Positions 1-54,969 of a DNA stretch of 64,000 nucleotides are shown here, one piece after another. The position numbers and the translations under genes were made by a program. The stretch is from Clavelina lepadiformis (lineage: Eukaryota). The stretch lies in assembly GCF_947623445.1 (NCBI RefSeq), contig NC_135244.1:13014860-13078859 (forward strand), in the 5' to 3' direction. Each line of letters starts with the position of its first letter. The stretch's first letter is position 1. Under the pieces are notes generated by a model that saw nothing but the letters and a program-made list of their open reading frames with translations, had not been told where the DNA came from and did not search any database.

Positions 1-445
1 TGCAAGGTAAAGGGAGTTTCCAAAGTATTGCAGCTAAATAAAACATGAATGAAATAGTTTTATGCAAAAGTGAAAAACGAATTAAAGAAGACCAGCCTAT
101 TATTAGCAGAATTCAAAAAACTGCTCTCAGTCAGAAATTTGAAAATGAGTTAGCTTGGAGTTAGTTGTTAGAAAGCATGTACGTGACTGCAATATACTCA
201 GCCAATTCATATATGATTTGCTAGGCACTGGATAAACTTGTTTATAAAAAAAATCTAGCTGAAGAAGGCAAACCTGACTGGTGCAGTGCGAAAGTCAGCT
301 ACAGCAAATCCTGTTATAATTTTTCATTTTTAAGAATGCGTCAATAAAATAAAAGAAGAGAAGAATTTCGGACCAGAGCAAAGTGGAACTGTGATGAGAG
401 TGATTTTTGAATTGATCCACAAAAATGCATAGTAGTGAGCGGTAC

Positions 446-565
446 TATGACACTTTATCGAACGACACTTTATCGAACGACAATTAATCGAACCGACAGA
501 TAATCGAACGACAGTTTATCGAACGACAGTTAATCGAACCGACAGTTGATCGAACGACAAACTTT
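446..565 (+). repeat. tandem array, ~15-16 bp unit (CAnTTnATCGAACGA) x ~8
   Basis: cactttatcgaacga / cactttatcgaacga / caattaatcgaaccga / cagataatcgaacga / cagtttatcgaacga / cagttaatcgaaccga / cagttgatcgaacga, read directly. Confidence 0.85.
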
Positions 566-1239
566 GACAATAGCTTCAAGCAAGATTTATGATATCACAC
601 TGATGAATTATATTATAGGTGTAACATCTTAAGCCTCAGTGTCATTTTAAGCCTCGGATCTTAATTGCGTGTTTCTCAAACATTGAGACAATAAGCCATT
701 GTGATGTGCGGTCTTTGTAATGGTGTGCATTAATGAATTGTGATGTATATATCATAAAGTTGACGATTTATATCTTATATCTCTATTTTATATTTGTATC
801 ATAAAGTTGACGATTTCGCATGGCGGCCGGCCCGCCATGCGAAATCGTCCGGCCCGAAACATATTAATAAGTTATCACAAGAATACGGACCGCCGTTTCT
901 TATTGAGTTTCAAACTGCAGTGTTAACACTGTTTGAAAAAATTGTGGTATTGTTACGCCACGCCCCCGCTGTGCGGAAAACCAGCTGACCGCGAGAAGAG
1001 AACGAAAGAGAATAGTTAGTCAAGTTATTGGTGCGTAAATGAGTAATATGCTTCAATGCGGAGAGAGAGCAAAATTATATAAATATCACAATATCTCAAA
1101 AATTACAAAATCCAACTTTATCAAACAAACATGGACAGATAGCTGAACATTTTTTATGAAAAGTCACCAAATTTCAATTTTCTACAGCAAACAATGCAAC
1201 TGTATGCCACGTTTTGCTATGACTGTGTGCGGGAGAAGC

Positions 1240-1320
1240 AACAGTCGATTCGATCAACTGTCGGTTCGATTACTTGTCGTTCGATCAGCTGTCGTTCGAT
1301 AAACTGTCTTTCGATTAAGT
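1240..1320 (-). repeat. inverted copy of the 446-565 tandem array
   Basis: tcgttcgataaactg etc. is the reverse complement of the cagtttatcgaacga units. Confidence 0.85.
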
Positions 1321-1364
1321 GTCGCGTCACGGTAGTGAGCATTCGTGGGTAAACGGCTTACAAA

Positions 1365-1800
1365 GTGACATGTGCTGCAGATCGTGACAACGCTAGCAGT
1401 TTGCATTGCAATAGGACACTTTTGCCAGAAAGAATCTTTAGAACAAATGCTTTGCCTGACACATTTTATGGCATCAGTAAAAATGGTTGGATGACCACAG
1501 AAATATTTTATGAATGGTTTATCAAGTGTTCTTGCCTGGTGAAAGACAGACCACTACTTATTTTCTGTGGCTATTTAACTCAATAGAAATGATACAAAAA
1601 GCAATAGCAGAAGATATTGCTCTAGTGAGCTTGCTGCCTCACATCACTGATAATTTGTAGCTTGCTTTGGGCCACTTAAAAGAGAGTGGGAGATTATGCT
1701 TAACATTTGGAGGACAAAGTCGTCAAAGCTGGGTTTCTGGCTACTGGAATATTTCCATTGGATCCTTTCAAACTTCTCAAACACTGATTTGACCCACTTC
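1365..1800 (+). pseudogene. pogo/Tigger-like DDE transposase C-terminal fragment, degraded
   Basis: Translation contains NGWMTTEIFYEWF and a KAGFLATGIFPLDP tail, typical of the pogo/Tigger DDE_1 C-terminus. The DDE third-residue block is degenerate (LLIFCGYLTQ). It is 5'-truncated with stops between fragments. Confidence 0.5.
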
Positions 1801-2679: not shown

Positions 2680-2804
2680 GTAATCTGGGTCGTGTGGATT
2701 ACATCACAGAACATGAATATGATTTATTTATTCGACCTGATACTTGCAACCCAAGGTTTCGGGTGTGGTTTCACTTTACTGTAGAAAATGTTCGTCCGGA
2801 TCAG
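2680..2804 (+). CDS. AGBL4: AGBL4/CCP6-like cytosolic carboxypeptidase, N-domain exon (GNLGRVDYITEHEYDLFIRPDTCNPRFRVWFHFTVENVRPDQ)
   Basis: Acceptor tgtgtag|, donor CAG|gttatt. The translation matches the conserved CCP N-domain (FESGNL..EYDL..RFRVWF.F.VENV). Phase chain is consistent with the downstream exons. Confidence 0.8.
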
Positions 2805-5464
2805 GTTATTTATACTTCTGAGTTTCGACAGTATATTTAGTATACTCTATTTTGAATGTGTGTAAATTACAGTAGTTGGTCAGAAATTTAATTGCACATA
2901 AGATTTAAGGCAAAGTTTTTATATTTTTCAAAACTTTATTGCCCTAACTAGCTCACTGCAAACTTGTTTTAACTGACTTGCTTTAGAATATGTATTACTG
3001 TGGAACTTTGTTAAAAAACTAACATATTCACAACTGTACCTCGTAACAAAGTGCCACCGTAATGCTGCAGCATGTGTCTTCAAAAGAAGGCATGTATGTT
3101 TTGCTCACATGTGCCTACTTACTATTATCACCCTGTGCAGTGTTTTGATGTGTTATTGAGGACTGAAACGGTATCTCAAAACTTATGGCTCACTGCAACT
3201 ACAGCAGAAAATTACCAGTTTGTGTTTAAAAGTTGCCCTAATATAAATTAATGTTGTCAAAGTCAAACTTTAAAAAAATGTTATTCATATCCACTTAAAC
3301 AACATCTGGTCTACATTAGCAACTCTTTTATCCTCGAGAAGTAATTAGATGTTAAAATTGTACAAGAAGTTGGATATTTTCCATCAGCGATGGCTTTTTA
3401 GTATGTTGTAATTGAGCTACAGAAACCATGTAACAAATGAAAAAATCTTGTAAAGGACAAAGTCCAGACCATTTCACGAAATAGTTACAATCTTCGGCCT
3501 ATGATAGCAGGACACATCTTGCGATTACTTACTGTAAAAATGATCATGTAAAAATAGAAGTGACCTGGGTACTAGATGGGAAAGGAAAGGAGGCTGACCA
3601 CAGAATAATTAAAAAGAACCTTTAAAAGACACCTAAAACAGTTCAAGAAGAATTCGGTACCAGTGTTAATTGAGACAGTAGATAAAAATTATGAGGAAAA
3701 TGGGAGGCTCTTGAATTGTACCTTTATTACCTATGGTTTAAATTGTAAAAAATATGAAAACTCAACATAATCCATTTGTTTCAATCACTCCTATTAAACT
3801 ATGTTGCCCCAGTGAAGGTAAAAAGCTCTTGTTGTGTTTTTGGGTACATATTTTCTTCAGAAAAGGTTTTAGGACAACGTGAGCTCACAATAAACATAAG
3901 GGAGTTGAAAATAGTAAGATTGAAGATACTGTAAGCAGTTCTTACAGTATATATTATTTAAGCAAGGATATCTTTATCAACTTAGTTTATTTATAGTTAT
4001 CATGTTTTTACCAATGCTGCTAGATATTGTTGTATATGTTAACAACACTGGTATAGAAACGGTCATCATAACACTTGCTTACTATTAGTTTGTTGAGTAA
4101 GTTTTGATAACCAACCAAAGGTACATAATTATCTCACATACCATATTGTGTTGCCTCAAGGTTATCAACTTATCTCACCTTGACAAATAGTTTGCACTAT
4201 AGAGTGATGAATATTTATTTCACATGAAAGTGATTCATTGGTGTACTATGTCAAAACACACAATGGCATAAATTAGCCGTCTAACTAACACTTGAAAGCT
4301 GTTAAAAGAGGCAAAAACCTGTCATTTATACAGGTTGGGTTTAAAATTGAATATTCGAGCAGTTACAGTGACAATTAAATGATGCTAATTTTCAAATCGA
4401 GTTTGAAATACTTTGAATGGTATTGGAGTTAATAGTTGTTTTTCAACTTTGTCATTCTTGTGGACTGGTAAAAGTTGAAGAGATGCTTTGTAAATACTGA
4501 TAGTATAGAAATGTGATTAACTCATTATTATAAATTGAATAAATTAAAAGAATTGAGTGAATCCACATGTGCAACAACAATCATTTTGGTAAGAAATTTT
4601 CAAAGTTTCTTGTCTGTGGCCCAATAAGATCTTTTGATTATGTAATAATATCTTCTCATTGCAATATTAAAAAACAAAACCAGAGAAGAGAAAAAAGTGA
4701 GAGAGAGGGAGGGAGTAGAGTATGGTAGCTTTTGAGATAAAATGAATGGGTGTTAAATATAAGTAAACAAAATGAATTGTCATTTGTCAAATTGAATGAA
4801 ATGAGCTAAGTAGCAGAAAGTCTTATTGGATTTACAAAATTTTAAATTTCTGCAAATAAATATATCGCAACCTTCCGATGCTATCACTCTTTCCATATCT
4901 ATTTTATATTATCTAATTGTAAGCTCTTGCGGAAAATTGAAGTTTTGGCATTTAATTTAATCAATATAAACCAATAATAATACAAAGGTTGGTAGTTTTG
5001 TGTCTAGCAAAGAAAAGTTTTTAATTCAGACAGAATTTTTTTTCAGAGAATCTTATGTTTTGCTGTAAAAGGCATCATCAGTTTCTGAGCAGAAAGCAAG
5101 CAATAACCCAACTCAAAGTAACATGAAAAACCTGTGCAATAATAATTCCAGCGATTCGAAATAATTTCATTAGCCATATAATGTTTAAATATAAATAATC
5201 TACAACGTACGACGCCTGTATTACTGGTATGTAGTAATCATACATTACCCAATAAATAAAAGACTTACATGAACTAAAACTGGGAAAACGTAAAATATCT
5301 TGTTCTGTATAGAAAGTAAAACACTGAAAAGGTTAAAAAAGTTGTTGCTGGTAAAAAGAACCTTCAAAACAAGAAAAAATTATTTTTATGCAGTTACACT
5401 TAAAAGGTCTGGTTAAACTTTATTTTAAAAATTCATTCAGTGCATTATATTGTGAATTTTACAG

Positions 5465-5559
5465 CGAGTTATTTTCAACGTTGTCAACTTCAGTAAAACA
5501 AAAAGCTTGTACAGAGAAGGAATGTCTCCGGTTGTGAAATCAACTAGTCGTCCCAAATG
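5465..5559 (+). CDS. AGBL4: AGBL4-like exon (RVIFNVVNFSKTKSLYREGMSPVVKSTSRPK-W)
   Basis: Acceptor ttttacag|, donor TG|gtaaac. Near-identical to the CCP6 motif RVIFNIVNFSKTKSLYRDGM..VKSTSRPKW. Confidence 0.8.
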
Positions 5560-5642
5560 GTAAACAAAAGATAAAAAAATTTTATCGCTAAATAAATAAA
5601 AAGGTAGTGTACACTCAGAATAATCATTATTTAATGCTGCAG

Positions 5643-5865
5643 GCAGCGAATCCCATCAAAAACTGTCTACTACTATAGATGCCCAGATCACAGAAAGAAT
5701 TATGTCATGTCTTTTGCATTTTGTTTTGATCGAGCTGATGAGAATGAAGTGTATCATTTTGCATATTCATACCCTTACACATATACAAGGCTTCAAGGAT
5801 ATTTGGATAGATTGGAAAAGAAGCAGTTACCTTATTTAGATCGACACCTTCTTACACTGACCGTG
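5643..5865 (+). CDS. AGBL4: AGBL4-like exon (W-QRIPSKTVYYYRCPDHRKNYVMSFAFCFDRADENEVYHFAYSYPYTYTRLQGYL...)
   Basis: Acceptor ctgcag|, donor GTG|gtaaga. Contains RCPDHRKNYVMSFAFCFD and FAYSYPYTYT, hallmarks of the CCP family. Confidence 0.85.
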
Positions 5866-6256
5866 GTAAGATGTGAATCTAGGGCAGGGGTGTTCAAATG
5901 ATTTCTGCCATGATCCACCACAACCAAACCTGACAACGTGGTGATCCACTAAATACGAATAGTAAACATATTGGACATGCTTTAATTTTAATGGTGCTTT
6001 ATTTATGTAAATGTACCCTACATTGTAGGGCCTACAACATATTTATAACTTTGTAAAAGTCCAAAGTGAAGTGTGCTATAGCTGCAACATTGTTTCAAGA
6101 CTACATTGGAAGATCCAGACAAAAAGTTGAAAAATCCGGATCGAGATCCGCCATTTGAACACCCCCGATCTAGGGTATTGTTGTGATTGGCAACTTCCAC
6201 CCATTTTGTTTTGGAACACTCTGTATAGGTGACTTTCATTGTACTCTGTTTTGTAG

Positions 6257-6386
6257 CAACAAAGAAGGCTTGATCTTTTAACCATAACATCACCTGAAAA
6301 TTTGAAAGAAGATGCAAAACATAATGTAGTTTTTCTTACTGGAAGGGTTCATCCTGGGGAATCACCTTCTTCACATATAGTTCAAG
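6257..6386 (+). CDS. AGBL4: AGBL4-like exon (QQRRLDLLTITSPENL...FLTGRVHPGESPSSHIVQG)
   Basis: Acceptor ttttgtag|, donor CAAG|gtatcc. Contains the zinc-ligand motif HPGE of M14 carboxypeptidases. Confidence 0.85.
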
Positions 6387-6880
6387 GTATCCCATGCAAA
6401 GTACCATACTTAAAGTACTCATCTTATTACTCATATCTGTACTCATATTCTCTTTATACCTTGCTTTTACTATAATTTACTGCACATTTCTATTGTGGTA
6501 GAGTTGCAAAGTTTGTAATACTTGGAATGAATTTTGCAAAGAAAGTCAATATATGGTATTGGCACATGTTCCTATAAAAATAACTTTTGTTAGAAGCGAC
6601 CATTTGTATCTCGCTACATACAAAAACTGAAGCACATTAAATGCAAACCACACTGCTATTCAGAATGCAGTATGCTACATGTTTACTTAGGTTGCTCCAA
6701 GTCACGTCCACATGTGAAGTGATGAAAGAATAAGACGTTGTTGCAAATTCATCATTTGTTAAATTTTTTAGAAGCAAAATTTCACTTTGCATGCCTCAAT
6801 AACTTTAACAAATGTTTGTAATAGCTAAATGGCATGATAAAGTTTTGATTTTTATGTTTATAAATAAGACATACTTTGTA

Positions 6881-6995
6881 GGGTTTATCGACTTCCTATT
6901 AAGTAATCATCCTATGGCATGTGTTTTACGAGACAACATAATTTTTAAAGTCGTTCCTATGCTTAACCCTGATGGCGTGTATTTGGGGAACTACA
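6881..6995 (+). CDS. AGBL4: AGBL4-like exon (GFIDFLLSNHPMACVLRDNIIFKVVPMLNPDGVYLGNYR)
   Basis: Acceptor ctttgtag|, donor AG|gttaga. Contains the PMLNPDGV..GNYR motif. Confidence 0.85.
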
Positions 6996-7214
6996 GGTTA
7001 GAAATGGATTAGCACTACATTTTCATCAGCAAAGTTGTTGAAAAAGTTCTGGTTTAATTGTTTGATGTTATTGCATTATGGTTGCATAATTTTACTTTTC
7101 TTGTAGCAGACTATGATTTCTTTCTAAACAAAAGTTAACAATATATGGCAATTCAGCACCATTTCTATGTCTTTTAATTTAAGTAATTAATTTTGTCAAT
7201 AAAACATACTGCAG

Positions 7215-7326
7215 GTGCTCTTTAATGGGATTCGATCTAAATCGCCATTGGCAAGATCCATCTCCCTGGGCTCATCCTACACTCCATGCTAGTAAACAGT
7301 ACCTCATGAATTTACATTCTAACATG
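7215..7326 (+). CDS. AGBL4: AGBL4-like exon (RCSLMGFDLNRHWQDPSPWAHPTLHASKQYLMNLHSNM)
   Basis: Acceptor tactgcag|, donor ATG|gtacaa. Contains GxDLNRxW. Confidence 0.8.
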
Positions 7327-7459
7327 GTACAAAAGATCATTTGTAAACAAAATGCACTTGACTAAAGATTGACAGTATCCTGGATAATGCCATGATTGAA
7401 TTATTTTATTGCCAGTGTATTACCGTATTATGGCAAATTGAACTCTGCATTATATGTAG

Positions 7460-7665
7460 AATATGGACATAGATTTCTACATTGACGTACATGCACATTC
7501 TACCCTAAGCAATTGCTTTATGTATGGAAACATATACGATGATGAGGATAGGTTTCAAAGGCAAGCAGTATTTCCAAGATTGATGTGCAGCAATGCAGAG
7601 GATTTTAGTTTTGCAAACACTGCTTTTAATCGGGATGTTGTGAAGGCTGGCACAGGGCGAAGGTA
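7460..7665 (+). CDS. AGBL4: AGBL4-like exon (NMDIDFYIDVHAHSTLSNCFMYGN...RFQRQAVFPRLMCSNAEDFSF..VKAGTGRR)
   Basis: Acceptor tatatgtag|, donor AG|gtaaga. Contains the second zinc-ligand His (DVHAHS) and the VKAGTGRR motif. Confidence 0.85.
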
Positions 7666-8235: not shown

Positions 8236-9621
8236 GTGTGTTTTTATGGTAGGATAACAGTTTACTAGGAACTGCCATTATAGTGGTAATGTTAAAACCG
8301 ATTGGGTTGTTTAAAATAAATTGGGAAAAGCTGAAGTTATATCTACTTAATTAACTATGCATAGTAATATTGTAAAAAAACACGACTGCATTAATATGTG
8401 AAAATATAATCTTCCATTAAAATATTAGGACCGACAAACTGGAGGGTACAAAGCCTTCATTTGATTTCATATTATGTAGGTCATTGTAGTTCTGTTATGA
8501 GGCTTTTGCTTATAAAAGAAAACAATATTTTTTACGAATAATCACAGATGAATAAGCGGAGTCTGTACTGCTGCTTATCCTACGGTTTTGTTTATTTTCC
8601 TTTGCAATAATGTACTAAGCAGGCGCAATCGTTTAGGAAATCAAATCATATGACAATAAGTTGAACTTACAAACGACTAAAAATCATGCTCATGCTTTTT
8701 GAACTCTTGCAAATAGAAATATGATGCCCATTAATTATGCTATCGAATTTATGGCTATCCCTACCGATTATAGGCTCCCTGGACACTTTTCAGACAAACA
8801 GTTCTTTTTCATGAAAGCCGACTTGCAGACGGCTGGGAGAGCTTTCTTGACAGTAGTCAGAACCTAAAGTGAGAGTGAAACTCACCTTGACTCCTTACGA
8901 GGTTGCATGTCTTTCATGGTAGCACTCCCGAAAAAATCGATTCGGCCAGCACTTAACAGAATAAAACTGTATTGAACCGGTAACCTGAGAAAGAAATGTA
9001 GAGCTGAGTGTATATAAAGCAAAGCAATCAACGTGAAATTAACTAAGGAATGTAAAAAATTTTGTCAAATAAAGTTGTCCGATGGTGCCAGCCGCCACAG
9101 TTTTATTGAAGACTCGCTAATGCAAACACCTGAAAAATCATAATTGAAAGGGACGGATATGTTTATTGAGTTTGCTATTTCGATTTTTAGCAGTAAACCT
9201 CCACCATTGTGTGATGTTAAGCAACCCAAGATTTGTTTATGCAGCCCATATTTTGGTATTGAATGATGTCGTGAGTAATAGAGAAATTACGCTAATGTTT
9301 GTTTGTCCCAACCGTACAGTTTTGCAATTTTCTCCCTTCAACTTAGAAGAATGGATGTAATTAATTCATGTCAATTTTTTAATATGTTATCGAAGGTGCT
9401 ACATGAGGCTTTTGAACATTCTTGCTCAAACTTAGCTTGTGGTTGACTTCGTATGTCGGTTTCATTTGCGTTGATTTACAGTGTATAAGAATATACGATA
9501 ATGTCCGTCATCTGCCATTACATATCAAGAATACTATACGGATAGGTTATTATTATATATATAGCCTGCCTTTTATGCACTTCAACAAATTTATAAATAT
9601 ACAAGGAAATCCTTCATTCAG

Positions 9622-9757
9622 ATCTAAAGAAAAGAATCTGCTGTCGAAGAAAAAACCGACTCGCGTATCTGGAAGTTCTTCCTCAAGCAACGGTGGTTCC
9701 AGGAATACTATCCTATCACCGGTTCCGAAACTTCGACAAGTGGATTATTTTACATGA
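9622..9757 (+). CDS. AGBL4: candidate terminal exon of the AGBL4-like gene (basic/Ser-rich tail, stop TGA 9755-9757)
   Basis: Strong polypyrimidine acceptor ccttcattcag| at 9611-9621. Phase-compatible with the exon ending 8235 (AG+A=Arg). Low-complexity K/S-rich tail like the vertebrate CCP6 C-terminus. No conserved motif to confirm. Confidence 0.35.
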
Positions 9758-10029
9758 TAGCTTTAGATATTCTGTGTAGACCCTGATCAGCCTTTCCGAA
9801 CGCTGCATTTCTTTTGCAGTTGTTCATAACTATCACTGTGTGACCCGAAAAAGAGCTATTGTTATGTACACGAATGGTTTCATTAAAAGCATATATTCAT
9901 TTTTGGTATTCTTGTATTATTTCTCAGTTATTGCCTGTCTTGACGTTAGGAATTATTTCTTTTAAGTATAGCTTGTGGCAATTCTACGTCACAGGTTGAT
10001 TAGTACTAGGTAGAACGTTAAGACGATGA

Positions 10030-17499: not shown

Positions 17500-19585
17500 C
17501 TAAAAAATTAAGACTAAGTTTTAAAAATGCCAAATTTTAATAGCTTTAAAATTGATTATGCCCTAGCTTATAGATTATATTACATACCAAAATTAAATAA
17601 ACTCAAAAATTAGTGTGTCAAAACACACATTAAAAACAACAAACTTCAGAAAATTGATGTTTGTTGCTGTACTGGTAACTGCCCTTTGCACAGATATTGA
17701 AGCTAATAATAATTCTTACAATGAAATTAATACTAGTAATAACAAATTTCAAAATAAAAACACAACACCAATTCATGTGGATAGAATTTCGTACAAGATA
17801 TTTACTGTACATATATATTTATCACTATCAAACTCTTAAATCATCAATGTCGCACCCATAGGCATCATGGGGCCCTGTTAGAGGTTTTCATTGTTGTGTA
17901 TGCCCAGTAATGACAATACTCTTCAATTAAGCAGTATACAGTTATTGGGAACACTCTGGCCAGTGGCAATTGATCGAAACAAACCAATTTCACATAAGGA
18001 TTGTACTGATTGGGATAATATAACAGAGAGTGGTATAGAATTTGCATTTGTGGTATTTTTCAGAATTGCAGCGGCAAGCAGGTTGTTACATTAGTGTGCT
18101 CATATATTGCAAAACTTATTTAAAATTGCATAAAACCAATCATTTTTGACTTATACTTAGTGTTAAACTTAACCAAGTGTAAAACAATTTATTCATTGTG
18201 CAGCTTGTATTTGAAAAATAAATTGAAAATTGCTGTCTTAGATCATGAGAACAGAGCAGACCTATGTTATGGTACTACCACAGGTAGAGTCCTTTGTGGA
18301 CTTGATTAAAGTTACTGTATTTATAGATTATTATTAGATAGTATATTTGGAATTATATTTTAATATAGTTATTCAGCAATGCGGCTAAGAACTCAATGTA
18401 ACTGCCACAATGAAAGAGGGTTTTGGGCTAAAAAAATAACAAATAATGGGGATTGGGGTGACAGACTTTAATTGCCCAGCTTTTGAAAATAAATAAAACA
18501 AACATAGAAAAGTTCTTAGTAACACTGAACAGACCCGAAACTTCAACCACTATTTTGTCATAAAACAAGATGTGGCAGTATGAAGATGGTAAGTTAAGTG
18601 TCTATGCACCTGACATGTGAACAAGCTCTTGTTGGAAAATGTAGGATATCAGCATCAGTGGAGCTGCATACCTACCCTACACCAATTGGAGTTGATCCAT
18701 GGCGAAGGGGCACTAAGTCTTGAAGCAGCTTTCCAAGAATGTTTCATGACCAGAAAGAAAAAAAAATGAAAAAGACTAGTACAAACAACAGCAAAAATGA
18801 AAGTAAAAATATCATCAAGGGAGAATGAAAAAAAAACCTACAAAACTAAAGTGATGGCCAACAAAAGTTTACAATAATCGATAATGATGACAGAAAACCT
18901 TACTGCGATGAACAAATGTTGGTAAAAAAGTGTAAAATTTCTAAACAATTTTTTACAGACACTGGAGCTAGAGTATTGAAACGGATGGCCACTTTTAGTG
19001 CAGGCACAAATCATATGCCATGTCTTCAAACCTCTTGGTATCATTAAGCCATGTGGATGCAATTGGTTTTATAGATAAGTTATATAAAACATTTTCTTTG
19101 TTATCATTTTTATACTACCATTGTAGTATTTATATGGCCTACTGAGTACTATTATTTTATGAATCTGCCCTCCTTGCAATATCTTACATTGCCTCCTCCT
19201 TACATATGAGAAACTATGATATGAGAAATCATACTTCATGGGTGGGAAAATAGCTATGACCCACCATGCCGATCTTCATCTGTGCGCAAACGATGTATGC
19301 ATAACGTACGTGTGTTAGCATAACAAAAGCACGTATGCAGAAAACTCACTGCGTTGTTGCACAATAAAACATTTAGCGTAATCAAAGCAATTATCCACGT
19401 ATGCATATGCATGAATAAATATTTTTGTTTTATCACAATGCTTTGTCTTTGCATCACTCACACTACACGTTTGTGAATACAAGCAACCCTGTTCTGTTGT
19501 TCAAAAGCTTTAGCTTGCAGAAGGTAGCATCAAGGTACTTGGCAGTTTCACCTTTGATGTCTGTGTTTAGTATTTACTGTAGTTA

Positions 19586-21663
19586 CAGGAGTTGAGTTAT
19601 TTGTAGTAATTAAGCATATATGTACAATATTTATTCAAATTTTTAGCAATCTTACAATGTTGGCAAAACGAAGAAAAGTTGATGCTGAGTGCCGAGGTTT
19701 TAATGAAGTATGGGAGAACAAGTACTTTTTCACTAACCATTTTGGTAGACCCACATGTTTGATTTACAAAGTTTCTGATGCTGTAAACAAGAAATTCAAT
19801 ATAAAGCGCCATTATGACACAAAGCATGGCAATTTTTCCATTGTTCACAGGTCAAACAAGGAAAGACAGACTGAACCAACTTAGAAATAGCTTGAATCAG
19901 CAGAGTTTGGTATTCCAAAAACAAACCATTAAATCAAAAAATATTACTCTTGCTAACTACAAGGTAGCAAAATTAATAGCAGAAGACAAGAGACCATTTA
20001 CTGATAGGGAATTTGCAAAAAAATGTATGATGGCTGTTGTTGAAACCATTTGTCCGGAGAAAAAAAGCTATTTTCAGATGTCAGTCTTTCAGCAACAACC
20101 GTAACCCGACAATAGAAGAGCTGTCTGAGAATGTGAAATCTAGCCAGAAAGACTGCTTTGAAGATTTACAGTTTTTCTCAATAGCAATAGATAAGAGCAC
20201 AGACATGACAGATTTGCTAGCAGTATTTGTGTGTGGAATAAACGAAGAATTTCATGTTGTTGAGGACTTTGTTCAATTGGATCCTATCAAGGGTACTACT
20301 GCAGGAAGCAATATTATGAAGGCATTACTTCAATGTCTTGAAGTCATGAATCTGAATCTCTCAAAACTGGTGTCAATAGCAACTGATGGAGCACCGTCAA
20401 TGGTTGGGAAAAATAAAGGTGTCGTGTATTGGCTTCAAAAACACATAGAAAGCCAAGGAATTAATATCAACATTTTGGAATTATACTGTCTCATTCACCA
20501 GCAGGCCTTGTGCGTAAAAGTGCCAAGCTTGAAGGACGTAATAGTGAAGTCTGTAAACTTCATTCTGTCTCGAGGATTGAACCATCATCAATTTCGCCAA
20601 CTACTAAGCAGAGAATCAGTATGGTGACTTGCTTTATTTCTGCAAAATCCGCTGGCTCAGTCGAGGCGATATTCTACAAAGAGTGTACACACTGAGAGAA
20701 GAAATAGCAACCTTCCTTGAAAATAAAAACATGAAAGCTGAAAAATTTTGCGATCCAGAAAGGGTTTCTAATTTGGCATTTCTGGTTGATTTAACATTGC
20801 ATTTGAATAAGTTGGACTTGCAGCATCAGGGGAAGCATCAAATGATACACGAGATGTGGAGATACGCACATTTGAGACAAAACTACGACTCTGGGAAAAG
20901 TTAGCTGGAAAATGCAAATTATGCTCACTTTGCTACACTGCGAGAGAGCAAACCTACAAGCAGTACTTTATTTATTTCTTTGATACGACATTTAAAAACT
21001 GAATTTTCATCCTGCTTAGTTGATGTTCGTTCTCTCAAAAATGATATCAAATTATTCAGTAATCCATTTGATGTACAAGTGGATGCAGTACAAGAGAAGT
21101 ATCAAATGAAACTAGTCGAGCTGCAATGCAGTAACAACTTAAAGTCAAAATTTCACACCATTATCATTGCATGACTTTTATAAGAAATATCTTATACAAA
21201 TATCGAACAATATCCCAACTTGATCAATCATGCCAAAAAGACGGCATCAATGCTTGGTAGCACTTACACGTGTGAACAACTACTTTCGTCAATGAAACTC
21301 ACCAAGAGCAAGCTTAGAACACAGCTTACTGATAACCACTTGCAAGATGTTATGCTTCTTGCCTCATCCAACCTATCGCCTGAGCTTACAAAACTTTCTA
21401 GCATGAAGCAACACCAAATATCACATTAATTTTATACTGTCAATAAATGTATTTTGTGTTTTCGTTATGAATTGTTACTACTTTTGTTAGGATTAATCTA
21501 TAGCTAAGTAAGGTGATAATTTCATAAAAATGACTTAAATTCGCGAACTTTAATAGAATCATAAAAAGGGAAGGAAACGGAATTGTTAGTGGAAAATTAG
21601 TATAGTTGATATCTTGCAGAGTTTGGTTTTGGCCAGCGGCTAGAGAAAGGTTGCCAACCCCTG
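19586..21663. mobile_element. hAT-superfamily DNA transposon, autonomous-type copy with decayed transposase
   Basis: 3' terminus ...GGTTGCCAACCCCTG ends at 21663 and is rc-related to the 5' CAGGAGTTGAG at 19586. Flanks CTGTAGTT and CTGTAGAA are 6/8 identical. Internal transposase ORFs are listed separately. Confidence 0.55.
19657..21429 (+). pseudogene. hAT transposase, frameshifted into >=7 ORF pieces
   Basis: N-terminus KRRKVDAECRGFNEVWENKYFF, as in ZBED5/ZMYM6/FAM200-type domesticated hAT. Downstream fragments FVCGINEEFHVVEDFV, SIATDGAPSMVGKNKG and LYFCKIRWLSRGDILQRV are hAT dimerisation-region-like. Three frames are used, so it is not intact. Confidence 0.7.
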
Positions 21664-23608: not shown

Positions 23609-23851
<243 letters not shown>

Positions 23852-24002
23852 CTAGATATGAACGCATGAAATGAAACAATATCTTTAAAAAGTCACAAAA
23901 AGCCATCTATTCATAATGTCAAAAGCAACCAACAACCATGACAAAATTTGGCATATAAGTAGCGAGAAAGAAGAATGTATGCTGCATTAATACGGTAATT
24001 TA

Positions 24003-24272
<270 letters not shown>

Positions 24273-40200: not shown

Positions 40201-40248
40201 ATAGAATATGTTTCATTTTAATTATTATTGTAAAAATACTATCTATAC

Positions 40249-40577
40249 CAGGGGCGGGCAACATACGGCCCGGGGGCCGGACCCGGCCCGCAACGGGATT
40301 TTGAGCGGCCCGCAGACAGTTTCCGGTCTTACATGATAAAACAAACATGGAGAGATAGCTGAACATTTTTTAGGAAAAGTCACCAAATTTCAAGTTTCTA
40401 CAGTAAACAATGCAACTGTACGCCACGTTTTGCTGTGACTGTGTGCAGGAGAAGCCACACCTAGTGAAAACAGGGTTAAAGTTTACATTAAATACGATTT
40501 GTATAGGTGGATAAATGCACGATTAATGTATCGATTCAGGAATCCGGCCCGCCGACCGAAGAAGTTGCCCGCCCCTG
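40249..40577. mobile_element. hAT-type MITE (family A) with perfect 8-bp TSD ATCTATAC
   Basis: TIR CAGGGGCGGGCAAC... at 40249 and ...GTTGCCCGCCCCTG ending 40577. TSD ATCTATAC at 40241-40248 and 40578-40585. The termini closely resemble the 3' end of the hAT at 21663 (GTTGCCAACCCCTG). Internal 40335-40460 is about 90% identical to 1127-1250. Confidence 0.8.
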
Positions 40578-41046
40578 ATCTATACGTATCAGGATGCAAG
40601 TAAAATGTCTTTCGCTGATTGGCTCATATAGCGATATAAAAGCTTAGGCTTGGTTTAAACCGCTCTCTTTTTCCCTTCTCGCTTATTCATCATTCAATTC
40701 AAGTGATAACTCTATCCGGATGAGAAATGGATATGAAATTGTTTCAGGTGTGACTACGACTATATTTTGAAAAATAGCCTATAACAAATTAGACTTTATG
40801 AATGTTGTGCTAATTTAAAGAAACAATCAGAGATAGCACATGCAACGGAGTCAAAGATAAAATAGTCAACAGTTTTAAAAGAAAGACTAAAGCCTTTCGA
40901 TTTAGGCCAACCAATCAAAAAATCAACATCAACAATCAACATCGCCATTCCCACAGTAATATCATTTTTATGGCCAAAATGCATCAAAACTTGCTTACGA
41001 AACGAGGTGGTTCATGAAACAAACTCACATTTCCAAGACTGTCGGT

Positions 41047-41165
41047 CTCATTTGCTTTCATTTGGTCTCCATTCTGTCTCATTTGGTTCCATTCGATCCC
41101 CATTCTGACCCATTTGGTCTAAATTGGTTTCACGTGGTGACCATTCGGTTTAATTCGGTCCCATT
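41047..41165 (+). repeat. tandem repeat, 11-bp unit CATTYGGTCYC x ~11 (degenerate)
   Basis: catttgctttc / catttggtctc / cattctgtctc / catttggttc / cattcgatccc / cattctgaccc / catttggtcta / aattggtttca... Confidence 0.7.
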
Positions 41166-46367: not shown

Positions 46368-47960
46368 ATGAAGACAATGGCTGCAGAATTATATTCTAAT
46401 CCTTTGCCTCCGGAGATAGAAGATGAATCCTCTACACTGGTGAATGAACCTTTAACAAATGCTGACTTTCGTAAATTACTTTCAACCCCACGCCAACTAG
46501 ATGCTAAACCGAACGAAAAAACTCAAAGGGGTTTTGCTGTGCCACGTGAATATACCTCTACCAATGACTCAGCTGCTGAACAAAGGCGAAAGAAAAAAAG
46601 CTTTTATGCTAAACTTAAAAAGCAGGAAATGGAAAGACAAGCTGAACTAGCTAAAAAATATCGAGATCGCTCAAAAGAAAGACGAGAAGGTAAAGGAGAC
46701 TATACGGATGTAGAATTAATAAGCACCACAGCTGACTATAGGGCAGTTGGTCCTACATCTGAAATGGATAGGACATCTGCTGAAAAAAGGCGTCAAGTAA
46801 TTCAGGAGTCAAAATTCTTGGGTGGAGATATGGCTCATACCCATCTTGTGAAAGGGTTAGATTTTGCTCTTCTGCAAAAAGTGAGAGCTGAAATTTCAAC
46901 CAAAGAACGTGAAAATGAAGAAATTCTTGACGATATACTGGAAAAAGATCAAAAATCTGAGCCTACTCAATGTGATAATGTAGTTGATTCAATGAACAAT
47001 AAAATGGCAAAAAATGTTTATAGAATTTTATTTCAACAAAAAATTCCCATTAGAAATGAGACTTTTTTACCTGGTCGTATGGCATATGTTTTTGAGCTTG
47101 AGGATGAGTATGCTGATTCTGACTTGCCTACGACGTTAATGAGAAGCAAAATGGATTGCCCTACTTTAGAAACACATACAACACTGTCTACAAATGACAT
47201 TGTCATTAACAAATTAACCCAAATACTTGCTTACTTACGTCATGGTTCAAAAGATAAGCACAAAAAGAAGAAGGAAAAAAAATCAAAAAGTGAAATCCAC
47301 AAGCCAGCTGAAGCCGACATGAATATATTTGATGACGTTGGAGAATATGTTCCGCCAAGTAAAGCATCTAAAAAACACAGCAAACATGGTGTTGGTCCAT
47401 ACTTTGAAAAGTCAGAATTGAAAAAGGAAGATGAGAGATTGGCATTATTGAATGTAAGTGCTAATGCATCTGTTAAACAACTTGTGCAAAACATTCATGA
47501 ACAACAGTCTACAAAAGAAAAAGTTCTTAAAACTGAAGCAGAGGCGAAGGTTAAAAAATCAGCAGGTAATCCACTGCTTGGAGGAAACGTCAATGCTCCA
47601 GACAGCTATGCGGAATGCTATCCATCCACTCAGTTTAACATATCTGGTATGGGTGAGGATAGTGATGAAGAGGCAGATTATTCCAAAATGGACATCGGAA
47701 ACAAAAAAGGCCCAGTTGGACGATGGGATTTTGATACACAAGAAGAATATAGTTCTTATATGTCTAAACGAGAGGCAATGCCTAAAGCAGCTTTTCAGTA
47801 TGGCATTAAAATGTCTGGAGGCCGCAAAACTCGGCGCACTCGCGAACAGAATGAAAAGCAGAAACTGAACAGAGAGTTGCAACAAATTCAACAAATTATA
47901 ACCAAGAGGAAAGGGTCATCAAAAAATGATGGTGATAATTACAAAAAACCAAAATATTAA
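46368..47960 (+). CDS. IK: protein Red (IK cytokine / RED) homolog, intronless, no RD/RE repeat
   Basis: The single ORF is collinear with human IK along its whole length: TNADFRKLLSTPR, RRKKKSFYAKL, AKKYRDRSKERR, ELISTTADYRAVGPT, SAEKRRQVIQESKFLGGDMAHTHLVKGLDFALLQKVRAEI, FLPGRMAYVFELEDEYADSDLPTTLMRSKMDCPT, NDIVINKLTQILAYLR, PEADMNIFDDVGEYVP, SYAECYP, YSKMDIGNKKGPVGRWDFDTQEEYSSYM, PKAAFQYGIKMSGGRKTRR, ITKRK. First ATG at 46368 or 46377 (the track's start at 46362 is TTG). Stop TAA 47958-47960. Confidence 0.9.
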   Translation: MKTMAAELYSNPLPPEIEDESSTLVNEPLTNADFRKLLSTPRQLDAKPNEKTQRGFAVPREYTSTNDSAAEQRRKKKSFYAKLKKQEMERQAELAKKYRDRSKERREGKGDYTDVELISTTADYRAVGPTSEMDRTSAEKRRQVIQESKFLGGDMAHTHLVKGLDFALLQKVRAEISTKERENEEILDDILEKDQKSEPTQCDNVVDSMNNKMAKNVYRILFQQKIPIRNETFLPGRMAYVFELEDEYADSDLPTTLMRSKMDCPTLETHTTLSTNDIVINKLTQILAYLRHGSKDKHKKKKEKKSKSEIHKPAEADMNIFDDVGEYVPPSKASKKHSKHGVGPYFEKSELKKEDERLALLNVSANASVKQLVQNIHEQQSTKEKVLKTEAEAKVKKSAGNPLLGGNVNAPDSYAECYPSTQFNISGMGEDSDEEADYSKMDIGNKKGPVGRWDFDTQEEYSSYMSKREAMPKAAFQYGIKMSGGRKTRRTREQNEKQKLNRELQQIQQIITKRKGSSKNDGDNYKKPKY

Positions 47961-51803: not shown

Positions 51804-52249
51804 GGTAGTAGTCTTATTTCTTTTTATCGCGATTTGTCAAGCATGCAACATGTTTGTTATACAATATTTCCAAAGTTTCTGTAGGGTATTATTAACTTTT
51901 TGTATAATTCACTTACTGTAAATATATTGATTTTCAGTCTGATCATTTCCTTAGGAACATCATTTCACTCCAGCTTTGTTATGTCTTTTAACACTATCAA
52001 AGTCACAACTTGTATATTTCCTGTAAGCAAAAAGGCACAGGCCTGAAACCATATCGTAATTGTAGGGAGATGGTAATGCGTTGCAGCCAAAAGTTAAGCA
52101 TTTAAGTTTGGGTTGGTACTTTAATAGTTTACGGGATAACAGTAGTGTAAACAAATTACTTGGCCTTGATTGAATTAATCATCAAAAGTCAAAATATTTA
52201 TTTTTCATTTTGTTGTATGTGCTTGTTATGTAACCTTTTGAACCTTCAG

Positions 52250-52428
52250 ACTGCTACCGCGGAACAACTTATGTCTTTTTTCTCCACTTGTGGTGAAGTG
52301 AAGTTTGTTCGAATGGCTGGTGATGAAACTCAGCCAACTCGATTTGCATTTGTAGAGTTTGCAGATGTGGAGAATGTGCAAAAGGCCATACAACTAAATG
52401 GTGTTCTTTTTGGAGAACGTCCATTAAA
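52250..52428 (+). CDS. SREK1: SREK1-like exon 5, RRM (TATAEQLMSFFSTCGEVKFVRMAGDETQPTRFAFVEFADVENVQKAIQLNGVLFGERPLK)
   Basis: Acceptor ccttcag|, donor AA|gtaagg. KFVRMAGDETQPTRFAFVEFAD is identical to human SREK1. Confidence 0.9.
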
Positions 52429-52686
52429 GTAAGGCAAATTACTTTACTTTAAGTTTCTTATCATTAAAAGTAAGAAAATTACTTTTTAATTTAACTTTTT
52501 TAGCAATTTTCTAACATAACTAATCATATGAAAGTAACATTATAATCATCAATTTACATTTAATTAGTTATGTTTTCTAATAAACAACAATTCATTCAAC
52601 ACTAGCATCATGCTAAGCTTGTAGTAAATATATTTTCTATTTCAATGCCCGTAAACTTAACTATATAACCACTTTGGCATACACAG

Positions 52687-54595: not shown

Positions 54596-54969
54596 CTACA
54601 AAAAATAGTTTCTGTTGTCAGCATTCACATATCTTCATTTATTTATCATTGTCGCATACAACAGTGGTTCCCAACCGCCAGTCCGCGTAATTTTTTTGCC
54701 GGTCCGCAAACTATCTTGCTTGCTGCCTAGCTAGTATTGATATGAAATCATAAGTATTGATATGAAATCATAAGCATTGCAAAGTTTGTTACTCCCTGTA
54801 AAACTGGCGTATCTCGCCTTCGTTGATACAGTAAAGTCGTAAATGCAACGAACAAACTTTGGCTAACAAAAAGATTACACATATCTGTTCTATTCACTAC
54901 GAGCTTGATTTATTTCCAGAAATGTGTGTTAAAAATTTGGTCCACTTACTGATACATACTAGAACTTAC

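Follow-up and report, generated by a model that had tools for sequence, protein, structure and literature searches.

The element and its insertion site

The stretch analysed here, referred to as the window, comprises 64,000 nucleotides of the ascidian Clavelina lepadiformis (contig NC_135244.1, positions 13,014,860 to 13,078,859). Close to its left edge the window holds an 891-bp element (441-1331), which lies between two copies of the 9-mer GTAGTGAGC, carries opposed arrays of a 15/16-nt unit and interrupts the remnant of a pogo-type transposon. The parts of the element and of its target are listed below, where TSD stands for target-site duplication, ORF for open reading frame and MITE for miniature inverted-repeat transposable element; L121 is a second Clavelina locus, and P0220 and P0229 are two homologues of the pogo remnant.

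384-431, plus strand: left part of the pogo-type (DDE_1) remnant, including 'WNCDESDF'; target DNA, colinear with P0220 122-140 and P0229 175-193
432-440, no strand: left TSD copy, GTAGTGAGC; one of the two occurrences in the window, encoding 'VVS' in the pogo frame, which homologues have once at this place
441-448, plus strand: terminal motif A, GGTACTAT (consensus GGTACTAC); the 5' or left end when coding relatives are read along the sense strand of the transposase
449-559, plus strand: left subterminal array, seven units of 15/16 nt (GACA-NTTN-ATCGAAC) and a partial unit; found with Tandem Repeats Finder, repeat families, pattern search and unit logo
560-1238, plus strand: non-coding interior of the Clavelina non-autonomous subfamily; neither an Rfam match nor an ORF matching a protein family
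809-849, no strand: perfect 18-nt palindrome with a 5-nt loop, a copy-specific inverted duplication; inverted-repeat search and comparison with L121
1120-1243, plus strand: 124-nt module common to the element and a hAT-like MITE (40336-40459); ends at the inner edge of the right array
1239-1323, minus strand: right subterminal array, five clear units and degenerate inner units, inverted relative to the left array; Tandem Repeats Finder, inverted repeats and pattern search
1324-1331, minus strand: terminal motif B, CGTGACGC, plus-strand reading GCGTCACG; the 3' or right end, recurring in relatives
1332-1340, no strand: right TSD copy, GTAGTGAGC; sequence reading and empty-site alignment
1341-1800, plus strand: right part of the pogo-type remnant (…NGWMTTEIFYEWF…, …KAGFLATGIFPLDP…) with stops and frameshifts; target DNA, from translations and BLASTP

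The direct repeat at 432-440 and 1332-1340 had been pointed out in a preliminary description of the sequence, and these two positions were found to be the only exact matches to GTAGTGAGC in the 64 kb. The left junction reads ...CAT A/GTAGTGAGC/GGTACTAT GACACTTTATCGAAC... and the right junction ...GATTAAGTGTC GCGTCACG/GTAGTGAGC/ATTCG... (slashes mark the boundaries). As read from the sequence, the repeat cannot be extended to 10 nt; the match stops at 9 nt, and this and the empty-site alignment given below show that the 9-mer does not belong to a longer duplication of host sequence.

Tandem Repeats Finder assigned a period of 15 to both arrays, with 7.3 copies on the left (449-559) and 5.6 copies on the right (1239-1324). 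The two arrays are mutually inverted, with 60-nt arms of 88-90% complementarity in an inverted-repeat search, in agreement with the opposed arrays of a 15-16 bp unit which had been placed at 446-565 and 1240-1320. The unit GACAGTTAATCGAAC was matched 12 times in the window with up to three mismatches, always within the two arrays, against 1.8 matches expected by chance, and a scan of the 64 kb for other arrays of the 15/16-nt unit found none. Both element ends begin their array with the same first unit, GACACTT(T/A)ATCGAA. The outermost 8 nt differ, however, being GGTACTAT at 441-448 and CGTGACGC (the reverse complement of 1324-1331) at the other end, and are not inverted repeats. The related inverted termini (..GACACTT) of the preliminary description are therefore found in the first array units and not in the outermost 8-mers, since A differs from B.

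The flanking DNA reads as a decayed pogo-type DDE_1 fragment. Its own match to Pfam DDE_1 (PF03184) is below threshold (15.5-17.7 bits against a cut-off of 22, E=0.003-0.013), and the Pfam model starts to the right of the junction; continuity across the junction was assessed instead with BLASTP against full-length homologues. These were P0220 and P0229, two DDE_1 proteins (91.8 and 61.7 bits, respectively) found by an exhaustive protein search with the 77-aa pogo ORF. Deletion of 441-1340, that is of the element and one 9-mer, puts the left flank in frame with the pogo-like ORF on the right. The joined translation WNCDESDF.IDPQKCIVVS/IRG.TAYKVTC aligns without a gap to WNCDESGFPHDPKNCRVVSVKGKTAFKVTC across the junction, and the joined peptide matches P0220 and P0229 with E=3e-30 and 2e-26 (43-48% identity over 115 aa). 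The alignment scored 100 bits with one copy of the 9-mer retained, 95.5 with two and 90.5 with none, and the 9-mer encodes VVS, so that zero or two copies produce a three-residue gap at the junction. The 9-bp duplication is thus shown directly, because removal of the element and one 9-mer restores a gap-free pogo alignment, and the target carried a single GTAGTGAGC originally. A tblastn search with the joined peptide against all fetched family loci found no relative.

The pogo fragment had been thought to be 5'-truncated by the insertion. Instead it is interrupted: the pogo frame extends to the left of the insertion for at least 19 codons (approximately nt 384-440) and continues without a gap across the empty site. 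The pogo remnant was already resident when the element inserted.

Family copies and the associated transposase

Relatives of the element were sought with a pattern spanning two adjacent units (ATCGAACGACANNTNATCGAAC) in metagenome contigs, while Clavelina copies outside the window are represented by two loci, L121 and L126, reached by protein look-ups. The pattern matched more than 120 contigs, most of them from a small number of JGI metagenome samples; their DNA is evidently that of a eukaryotic host. A literature search for the accessions of the samples had no result, and the RED-protein relative P0002 belongs to another ENA sample. Within the 120 metagenome loci (920 kb), approximately 2,000 units were counted; the arrays have from 3 to more than 100 of them, and there are many convergent pairs. 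A 69-aa spurious ORF running through the right array, used as bait in a word-indexed protein search, returned no candidate relatives.

A logo of the unit was built from 2,033 metagenome and 43 Clavelina units. Conservation reaches 90-100% at positions 1-4 (GACA), 7 (T) and 9-14 (ATCGAA); the variable positions are 5, 8 and 15 and, in Clavelina, also 6. Read across unit boundaries, this gives an almost invariant 11-nt core (ATCGAAC-GACA) and a variable spacer of 4-5 nt. Spacings of 15 and 16 nt are equally common and occur in runs; a fixed 31-nt (15+16) super-period in helical phase was considered and rejected, as the spacings do not strictly alternate. In the metagenome species, one-directional arrays of 55-104 units and up to 1.7 kb were also seen (L021 782-2450, L010 1583-2648 and L077 10508-11999). 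The subterminal repeat has here expanded into satellite-like DNA, as reported for other foldback elements.

When the sequence outside each array was extracted, two types of end were found, A (GGTACTAC, GGTACTAY) and B (CGTGACGC), each abutting the first unit. Among 115 non-redundant array ends, 33 were of type A and 33 of type B, the rest being mostly arrays whose degenerate first unit escaped the detector. The first one or two units are end-biased as well, with GACAATTC... beside A and GACAGTTT... beside B. One A end and one B end were present in each of the 14 non-redundant complete copies, and the terminal asymmetry is, on this comparison of copies, to be read as a conserved feature of the family and not as decay. 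Since the 9-mer repeat in the window abuts A (441-448) and B (1324-1331), the boundaries of the window copy are those of the family.

The 14 copies scored for TSDs were the window copy, Clavelina L126 and 12 metagenome copies, of 587-4334 bp. They gave the following counts:

9 bp, perfect: 5 of 14 copies
9 bp, 8 of 9 positions matching: 3 of 14 copies
9 bp, 7 of 9 positions matching: 2 of 14 copies
8 bp, perfect: 2 of 14 copies
no recognisable TSD: 2 of 14 copies

A 9-bp TSD with at least seven of nine positions matching is therefore present in 10 of the 14, and such a match at a fixed site has a calculated chance of approximately 0.0013. Other copies with different flank lengths had been named as a check on the preliminary description; the 13 further complete copies have mostly 9-bp and sometimes 8-bp TSDs. 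The second Clavelina copy, L126, is itself a TSD-flanked element (AAGTAACCT/GGTACTAC...GCGTCACG/AAGTAACCT). Three long complete copies, L098 (4.3 kb), L040 (3.1 kb) and L055 (2.8 kb), were considered as autonomous elements and rejected, since they contain no ORF longer than approximately 110 aa.

These copies bear on whether the locus is a transposon at all. It could be supposed that it never moved and is a local inverted duplication of a minisatellite, flanked by a 9-nt direct repeat that arose by chance; in the 64-kb window the arrays are found nowhere else, and at least two matches of the 9-mer somewhere in the window occurred in 3 of 100 shuffles. Yet the 9-mer sits exactly outside two conserved terminal 8-mers, more than 100 dispersed copies have different flanks, the 13 other complete copies examined have mostly their own differing TSDs, and the pogo protein alignment becomes colinear again once the empty site is reconstructed. 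An immobile origin is already refuted by these data and retains next to no probability.

Further evidence came from the ORFs found by scanning inward from the array ends. In the metagenome locus L026, a 453-aa ORF (8605-9963) lies between arrays of the element's unit. It contains a FLYWCH domain (PF04500, 51.9 bits, E=8e-14, above the gathering score) and a MULE domain (PF10551, 36.6 bits against a cut-off of 27.6, E=6e-9). The Clavelina homologue, P0123/CAK8697796.1, has 451 aa, is 84% identical to the L026 protein and has precomputed matches to PF10551 and PF04500; its gene appears to be single-exon. Intact FLYWCH+MULE genes flanked by the element's arrays encode 449-451 aa, Clavelina included. 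Four further copies or fragments of the Clavelina transposase, with at least 90% identity, are found on other chromosomes. The residues D173/D235/E368, W350 and the C2H2 residues of FLYWCH are invariant, and the transposase genes are under purifying selection, with a dN/dS of 0.22-0.26. Other homologues are unnamed FLYWCH+MULE proteins of molluscs, crustaceans, rotifers and insects, and the sole solved structural relative is a FLYWCH domain (PDB 2RPR). Between the metagenome species and Clavelina, only the coding sequence (88% at the nucleotide level) and the arrays are conserved.

In Clavelina the gene adjoins the same ends as those of the window copy. In L121 the transposase gene occupies 6001-7356, and 41 nt past its stop codon begins an inverted array ending ...TGTCGCGTCACG, whose terminus (7586-7593) is motif B, identical to that in the window. 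An A-type end lies upstream of the transposase gene in L123/L124; since A precedes the gene there and B follows it in L121, the orientation is A - sense transposase - B. L126 contains window-like interior on both sides of a 717-nt 3' fragment of the transposase (95.5% identity), all within a TSD-flanked A...B element, and therefore links the non-autonomous and coding forms directly. The family is thus associated in Clavelina with an intact FLYWCH+MULE transposase under selection.

The L121 cluster (3524-7593 on CAUIVY010000003.1) consists of a B...B pair (3524-4690), a 5'-truncated window-like copy (4691-5680) and the transposase gene. On their outer side, the B ends at 5680 and 7593 are bordered by similar sequences (AATCGT..AG.CTA), and the arrangement hints at local duplication or aberrant transposition. 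In the metagenome, L122 (4385-8077) and L123 (373-3895) carry two intact transposase genes at one shared locus, with 89% amino acid identity and a dN/dS of 0.22. They were rejected as independent coding insertions for TSD evidence, as their flanks are homologous for more than 1.5 kb. The pair could represent two species or haplotypes or a segmental duplication, and could be a long-lived or domesticated copy.

With the transposase in hand, the attribution to another superfamily can be weighed. On such a view the element would be a Foldback-like member of a superfamily with 7-9-bp TSDs (P, like Galileo, hAT or Merlin), and the MULE genes would be unrelated nested insertions. Foldback-like ends did arise in more than one superfamily (Galileo in the P superfamily, PMC3688188; Tm1 discussion, PMC3169594), two copies have 8-bp TSDs, and none of the coding copies recovered combines both canonical ends with a clean TSD. 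Against this, the FLYWCH+MULE ORF lies between arrays of the same unit at three loci in two species, always in the order A - sense - B, and the limits of cross-species conservation coincide with the coding sequence and the arrays. Moreover, L126 has its transposase fragment within an A...B element flanked by a TSD, none of the copies was found to contain an ORF of the THAP, hAT or Merlin type, and a 9-bp TSD in 10 of 14 copies fits a MULE rather than P (7-8 bp) or hAT (8 bp). Membership of another superfamily is therefore largely refuted already and must be considered very improbable.

Interior sequence and neighbouring features of the window

The interior of the window copy is 93-96.5% identical to L121, a locus with two partial copies (matches at 4693-4897 and 5267-5554), and approximately 80% identical to L126, and it is absent from the metagenome copies. 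A structured RNA in the interior was considered and rejected, as Rfam gave no match at E up to 1. The absence of a conserved interior fits the heterogeneous interiors of Muta (PMC5225508) and Tm1 derivatives. The palindrome at 809-849 reads GACGATTTCGCATGGCGG CCGGC CCGCCATGCGAAATCGTC. At the homologous place in L121 (3780-3815) only the first palindrome arm is found; the palindrome is thus a templated inverted duplication specific to the window copy, such as foldback repair leaves behind. A direct repeat close to it (743-769/790-816) also differs between copies.

The right part of the interior is shared with a different kind of element. At 40249-40577 the window contains a 329-bp MITE whose 14-bp terminal inverted repeats (TIRs) read CAGGGGCGGGCAAC/GTTGCCCGCCCCTG. 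It has subterminal motifs of the CGGCCCG type and is flanked at 40241-40248 and 40578-40585 by a perfect 8-bp TSD, ATCTATAC; by these features it is hAT-like. About 90% identity between 1127-1250 and the MITE interior at 40335-40460 had been noted from the sequence, and self-BLAST confirmed it, with 92.7% over 124 nt (1120-1243 against 40336-40459). Capture or recombination between element families had been suggested as the cause. The module is indeed shared between families, but it was not captured by the window copy, as it is 99.2% identical in L121 (5436-5559); its identity to the MITE is 92.7-93.5% across the copies. L126 matches only window 1090-1150 (61 of 61 nt) and then diverges. The comparison of copies indicates that the module belongs to the Clavelina MULE subfamily (MULE, Mutator-like element). 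Transfer from MULE to MITE is slightly favoured, because the left part of the module is native to two diverged MULE lineages.

A TIR similar to that of the MITE (CAGGGGTGGGCAG) terminates the homology between L122 and L123 in the metagenome species. Within the window, a decayed hAT-type transposase in several frames (19558-21426, plus strand) may be a coding relative of hAT-like MITEs in the Clavelina genome. It contains a weak Spin-doc-type zinc finger (19558-19881) and, at 21184-21426, a hAT C-terminal dimerisation domain (PF05699) whose score of 21.5 bits barely reaches the cut-off.

The G+C content of the window is 35%, and its observed/expected CpG ratio is 0.70. Its other recognised features are as follows:

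2680-7663 (approximate), plus strand: exons of a cytosolic carboxypeptidase (AGBL/CCP-type), with an N-domain (PF18027, approximately 2680-2810) and Peptidase_M14 (6257-6390), both weak
23609-24272, minus strand: exons of an EF-hand pair protein (PF00036/PF13499), calcyphosin-like by eye
41045-41116: short tandem repeat unrelated to the element, 31-nt unit, 2.3 copies
46377-47957, plus strand: RED/IK protein gene, an uninterrupted and apparently intronless 527-aa ORF, 100% identical to 'protein Red-like [Clavelina lepadiformis]'
52151-52429, plus strand: RRM-domain exon
54733-54779: short tandem repeat unrelated to the element, 20-nt unit, 2.3 copies

The nest of MULE and pogo lies approximately 1.3 kb upstream of the first recognised carboxypeptidase exon, and thus in an intron or the 5' region of that gene.

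Classification, known relatives and proposed mode of transposition

Very probably, the sequence at 441-1331 is a non-autonomous deletion-derivative copy belonging to a family of Foldback-like Mutator-superfamily DNA transposons (eukaryotic class II elements) of ascidians. A MULE design had been proposed from the 9-bp TSD and the subterminal tandem repeats, and is now supported by the TSDs of further copies and by the FLYWCH+MULE gene between arrays of the same unit. MULE TSDs measure 8-11 bp, and the Phantom subclass includes Tunicata (PMC6446971); the length is typically 9, and the window copy has a perfect 9-bp TSD. MULEs also have a MULE-domain (IS256-like DDE) transposase in autonomous members, here encoded by L026 and Clavelina P0123, and shared long subterminal inverted repeats, here the 75-110-nt arrays of the window, whose unit and B terminus adjoin the Clavelina gene. 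The FLYWCH+MULE architecture corresponds to that by which the Phantom subclass is defined, as quoted in PMC3169594 (Phantom sensu Marquez & Pritham 2010; group 20 of Dupeyron et al. 2019). The unequal and variable unit numbers (seven and five in the window, 3 to more than 100 in relatives) agree with a 'type 2 foldback' in the sense used for Muta1 (PMC5499845). With the hAT superfamily the element has the 124-nt module as its sole link, its TSD being 9 bp and its arrays enclosing FLYWCH+MULE, and P superfamily, Galileo or 1360 affinity is at odds with the lack of a THAP ORF in any copy and with TSDs of mostly 9 bp. The window copy has defined boundaries, a TSD, conserved asymmetric ends and a place in the family.

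Several observations weigh against this classification. Two of the 14 complete copies have no recognisable TSD, and none of the copies recovered from Clavelina is both complete and autonomous, with canonical A and B ends and a clean 9-bp TSD. The L121 transposase gene is without a 5' array of its own, and the locus is a rearranged cluster including one B...B pair without a TSD. L026/L122 and L123/L124 represent one ancestral insertion with homologous flanks, and their termini have diverged, with a flanking repeat of roughly 7 bp only. The putative assignment to Phantom is made on domain architecture.

Some of these points also suit the view that the element is a true MULE relic of a family that is extinct, or whose transposase has been domesticated, leaving the window copy immobile. 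The intact ORFs of L122 and L123 stand at one shared (orthologous or duplicated) locus with a dN/dS of 0.22, the L121 gene has no 5' array, copies differ by 4-20%, and the window arrays are matched at only approximately 88-90%. Nevertheless, both complete Clavelina copies have perfect 9-bp TSDs, the module is 99.2% identical between two copies and the transposase fragment 95.5% between chromosomes, and at least five transposase copies or fragments with at least 90% identity lie on different chromosomes. Gene-adjacent arrays and terminal motifs are conserved as well, although a domesticated gene would have no need of them. Extinction or domestication is therefore rather unlikely, and bears on present activity only, not on the identity of the element as a MULE.

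Among known relatives, Muta1 and Muta5 of Aedes aegypti and Tm1 of Meloidogyne come closest in design. Muta1 encodes a FLYWCH+DDE transposase and has a 10-bp terminal motif, nine 12-bp repeats with 3-4-bp spacers and an 8/9-bp TSD, and Muta5 has an 8-bp terminal motif with nine copies of a 15-bp repeat (PMC5225508). The non-autonomous derivatives of both number in the hundreds, have the ends alone in common and are heterogeneous in their interiors (PMC5225508). They are classed as 'type 2 Foldback' and were placed in the Phantom clade by Dupeyron et al. 2019. The Clavelina family is similar in its FLYWCH + DDE/MULE transposase of approximately 450-550 aa, its 8/9-bp TSD and its short terminal motif followed by subterminal repeats (period of 15-16 bp in Muta1, 15-bp repeat in Muta5). 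Unlike Muta1, which has the same imperfect palindrome at both ends, its ends carry the different 8-mers A and B. Its unit has no detectable DNA similarity to those of Muta1 and Muta5, its host is a chordate and not an insect, and its transposase, compared with theirs at the level of Pfam domains, is apparently single-exon with 451 aa.

Tm1 has asymmetric 7-bp motifs (A1/A2) outside TIRs made of 13-15-bp tandem repeats, a 9-bp (8-10) TSD and a Phantom-like transposase, and occurs mostly as non-coding MITE-like copies with a rare FLYWCH+MULE coding copy (PMC3169594). In the Clavelina family, too, an asymmetric terminal motif lies outside the inverted repeat at each end, tandem-repeat numbers vary and the TSD is 9 bp, and the B...B pair of L121 (3524-4690) recalls the occasional Tm1 copy with the same motif twice (PMC3169594). 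Conversely, the terminal motif has 8 nt instead of 7, the unit sequences are unrelated, the Tm1 motifs B (GGA) and D (GA-rich) were not seen in the Clavelina family, and the end bias of the first one or two units in the Clavelina family is a further difference.

More distant likenesses exist among other foldback elements. Drosophila Foldback (FB/FB-NOF) combines a 9-bp TSD with long inverted ends of short tandem repeats in variable number and is mostly non-coding; its ends are much longer than those of the Clavelina element and have 10/20/31-bp repeat hierarchies, and the two are likened by description only. Sea-urchin TU elements (Liebermann, Hoffman-Liebermann et al., 1980s) are reportedly foldback elements with approximately 15-bp tandem repeats in the outer domains of their inverted repeats and an 8-bp TSD. 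Their modular middle segments are said to occur elsewhere in the genome too, which is reminiscent of the shared 124-nt module and is taken as a lead only; a literature search on sea-urchin TU/foldback elements found nothing. Galileo has a 7-bp TSD. Its repetitive TIRs include tandem repeats with multiple binding sites for a THAP transposase (PMC3688188), which supports the general idea of arrays as binding-site arrays. In contrast to this THAP/P-type element, the Clavelina family has FLYWCH+MULE and a 9-bp TSD, and the resemblance is one of convergent design without membership.

A mode of transposition can be proposed by analogy with Muta1. In vitro, the Muta1 transposase binds the terminal motif, and added repeats lead to more binding and to oligomeric complexes; donor cleavage requires motif and repeat and passes through a hairpin formed on the flanking DNA, and the 3'-OH ends are then joined to the target (PMC5499845). 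For the window copy, a coding copy at another site in the Clavelina genome would provide transposase in trans. The transposase would bind the terminal motif, and the repeated subterminal units would recruit it cooperatively, probably as oligomers. The A and B 8-mers would define the cleavage sites, with cutting at the boundary of element and flank via a hairpin on the flanking DNA. The freed 3'-OH ends would then attack the target with a stagger of 9 bp (sometimes 8 bp), whose repair would produce the TSD. Binding by the arrays, hairpin chemistry and mobilisation in trans are here inferred from Muta1, and the current activity of the family is likewise inferred. It is a more speculative and rather doubtful proposal that the two ends are functionally non-equivalent, each 8-mer being needed once for a synaptic complex that is ordered and asymmetric, and that the family, which has perfect TSDs and, on several chromosomes, intact transposase genes under selection, has remained active in Clavelina. 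Ordered asymmetric complexes, unlike a symmetric pair of TIRs, are used by phage Mu, Tn7 and the P element.

The element is an ordinary kind of transposon whose mechanism is well understood, and no new mechanism is revealed. The family itself is probably undescribed and seems so in tunicates: a 2019 survey of MULEs contained a single chordate sequence, from Ciona savignyi (PMC6446971), and a literature search on Clavelina transposons found none beyond the genome note. Through it the Phantom/Foldback-type MULEs gain a well-documented lineage in a chordate (tunicate). Terminal motifs that are conserved, asymmetric and placed outside tandem-repeat TIRs now have a second clear example, the first being nematode Tm1. 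An anonymous 0.9-kb repeat becomes a defined family with boundaries, motifs A (GGTACTAC) and B (CGTGACGC), a unit (GACA-NTTN-ATCGAAC) a TSD length and an identified transposase (CAK8697796.1 and paralogues), so that ascidian genomes can be masked for it and its copies counted. From approximately 2,000 aligned units, the 11-nt core emerges as a candidate FLYWCH binding site. If the ends are indeed non-equivalent and the family is active, this would be a native and tractable cut-and-paste MULE of a chordate.

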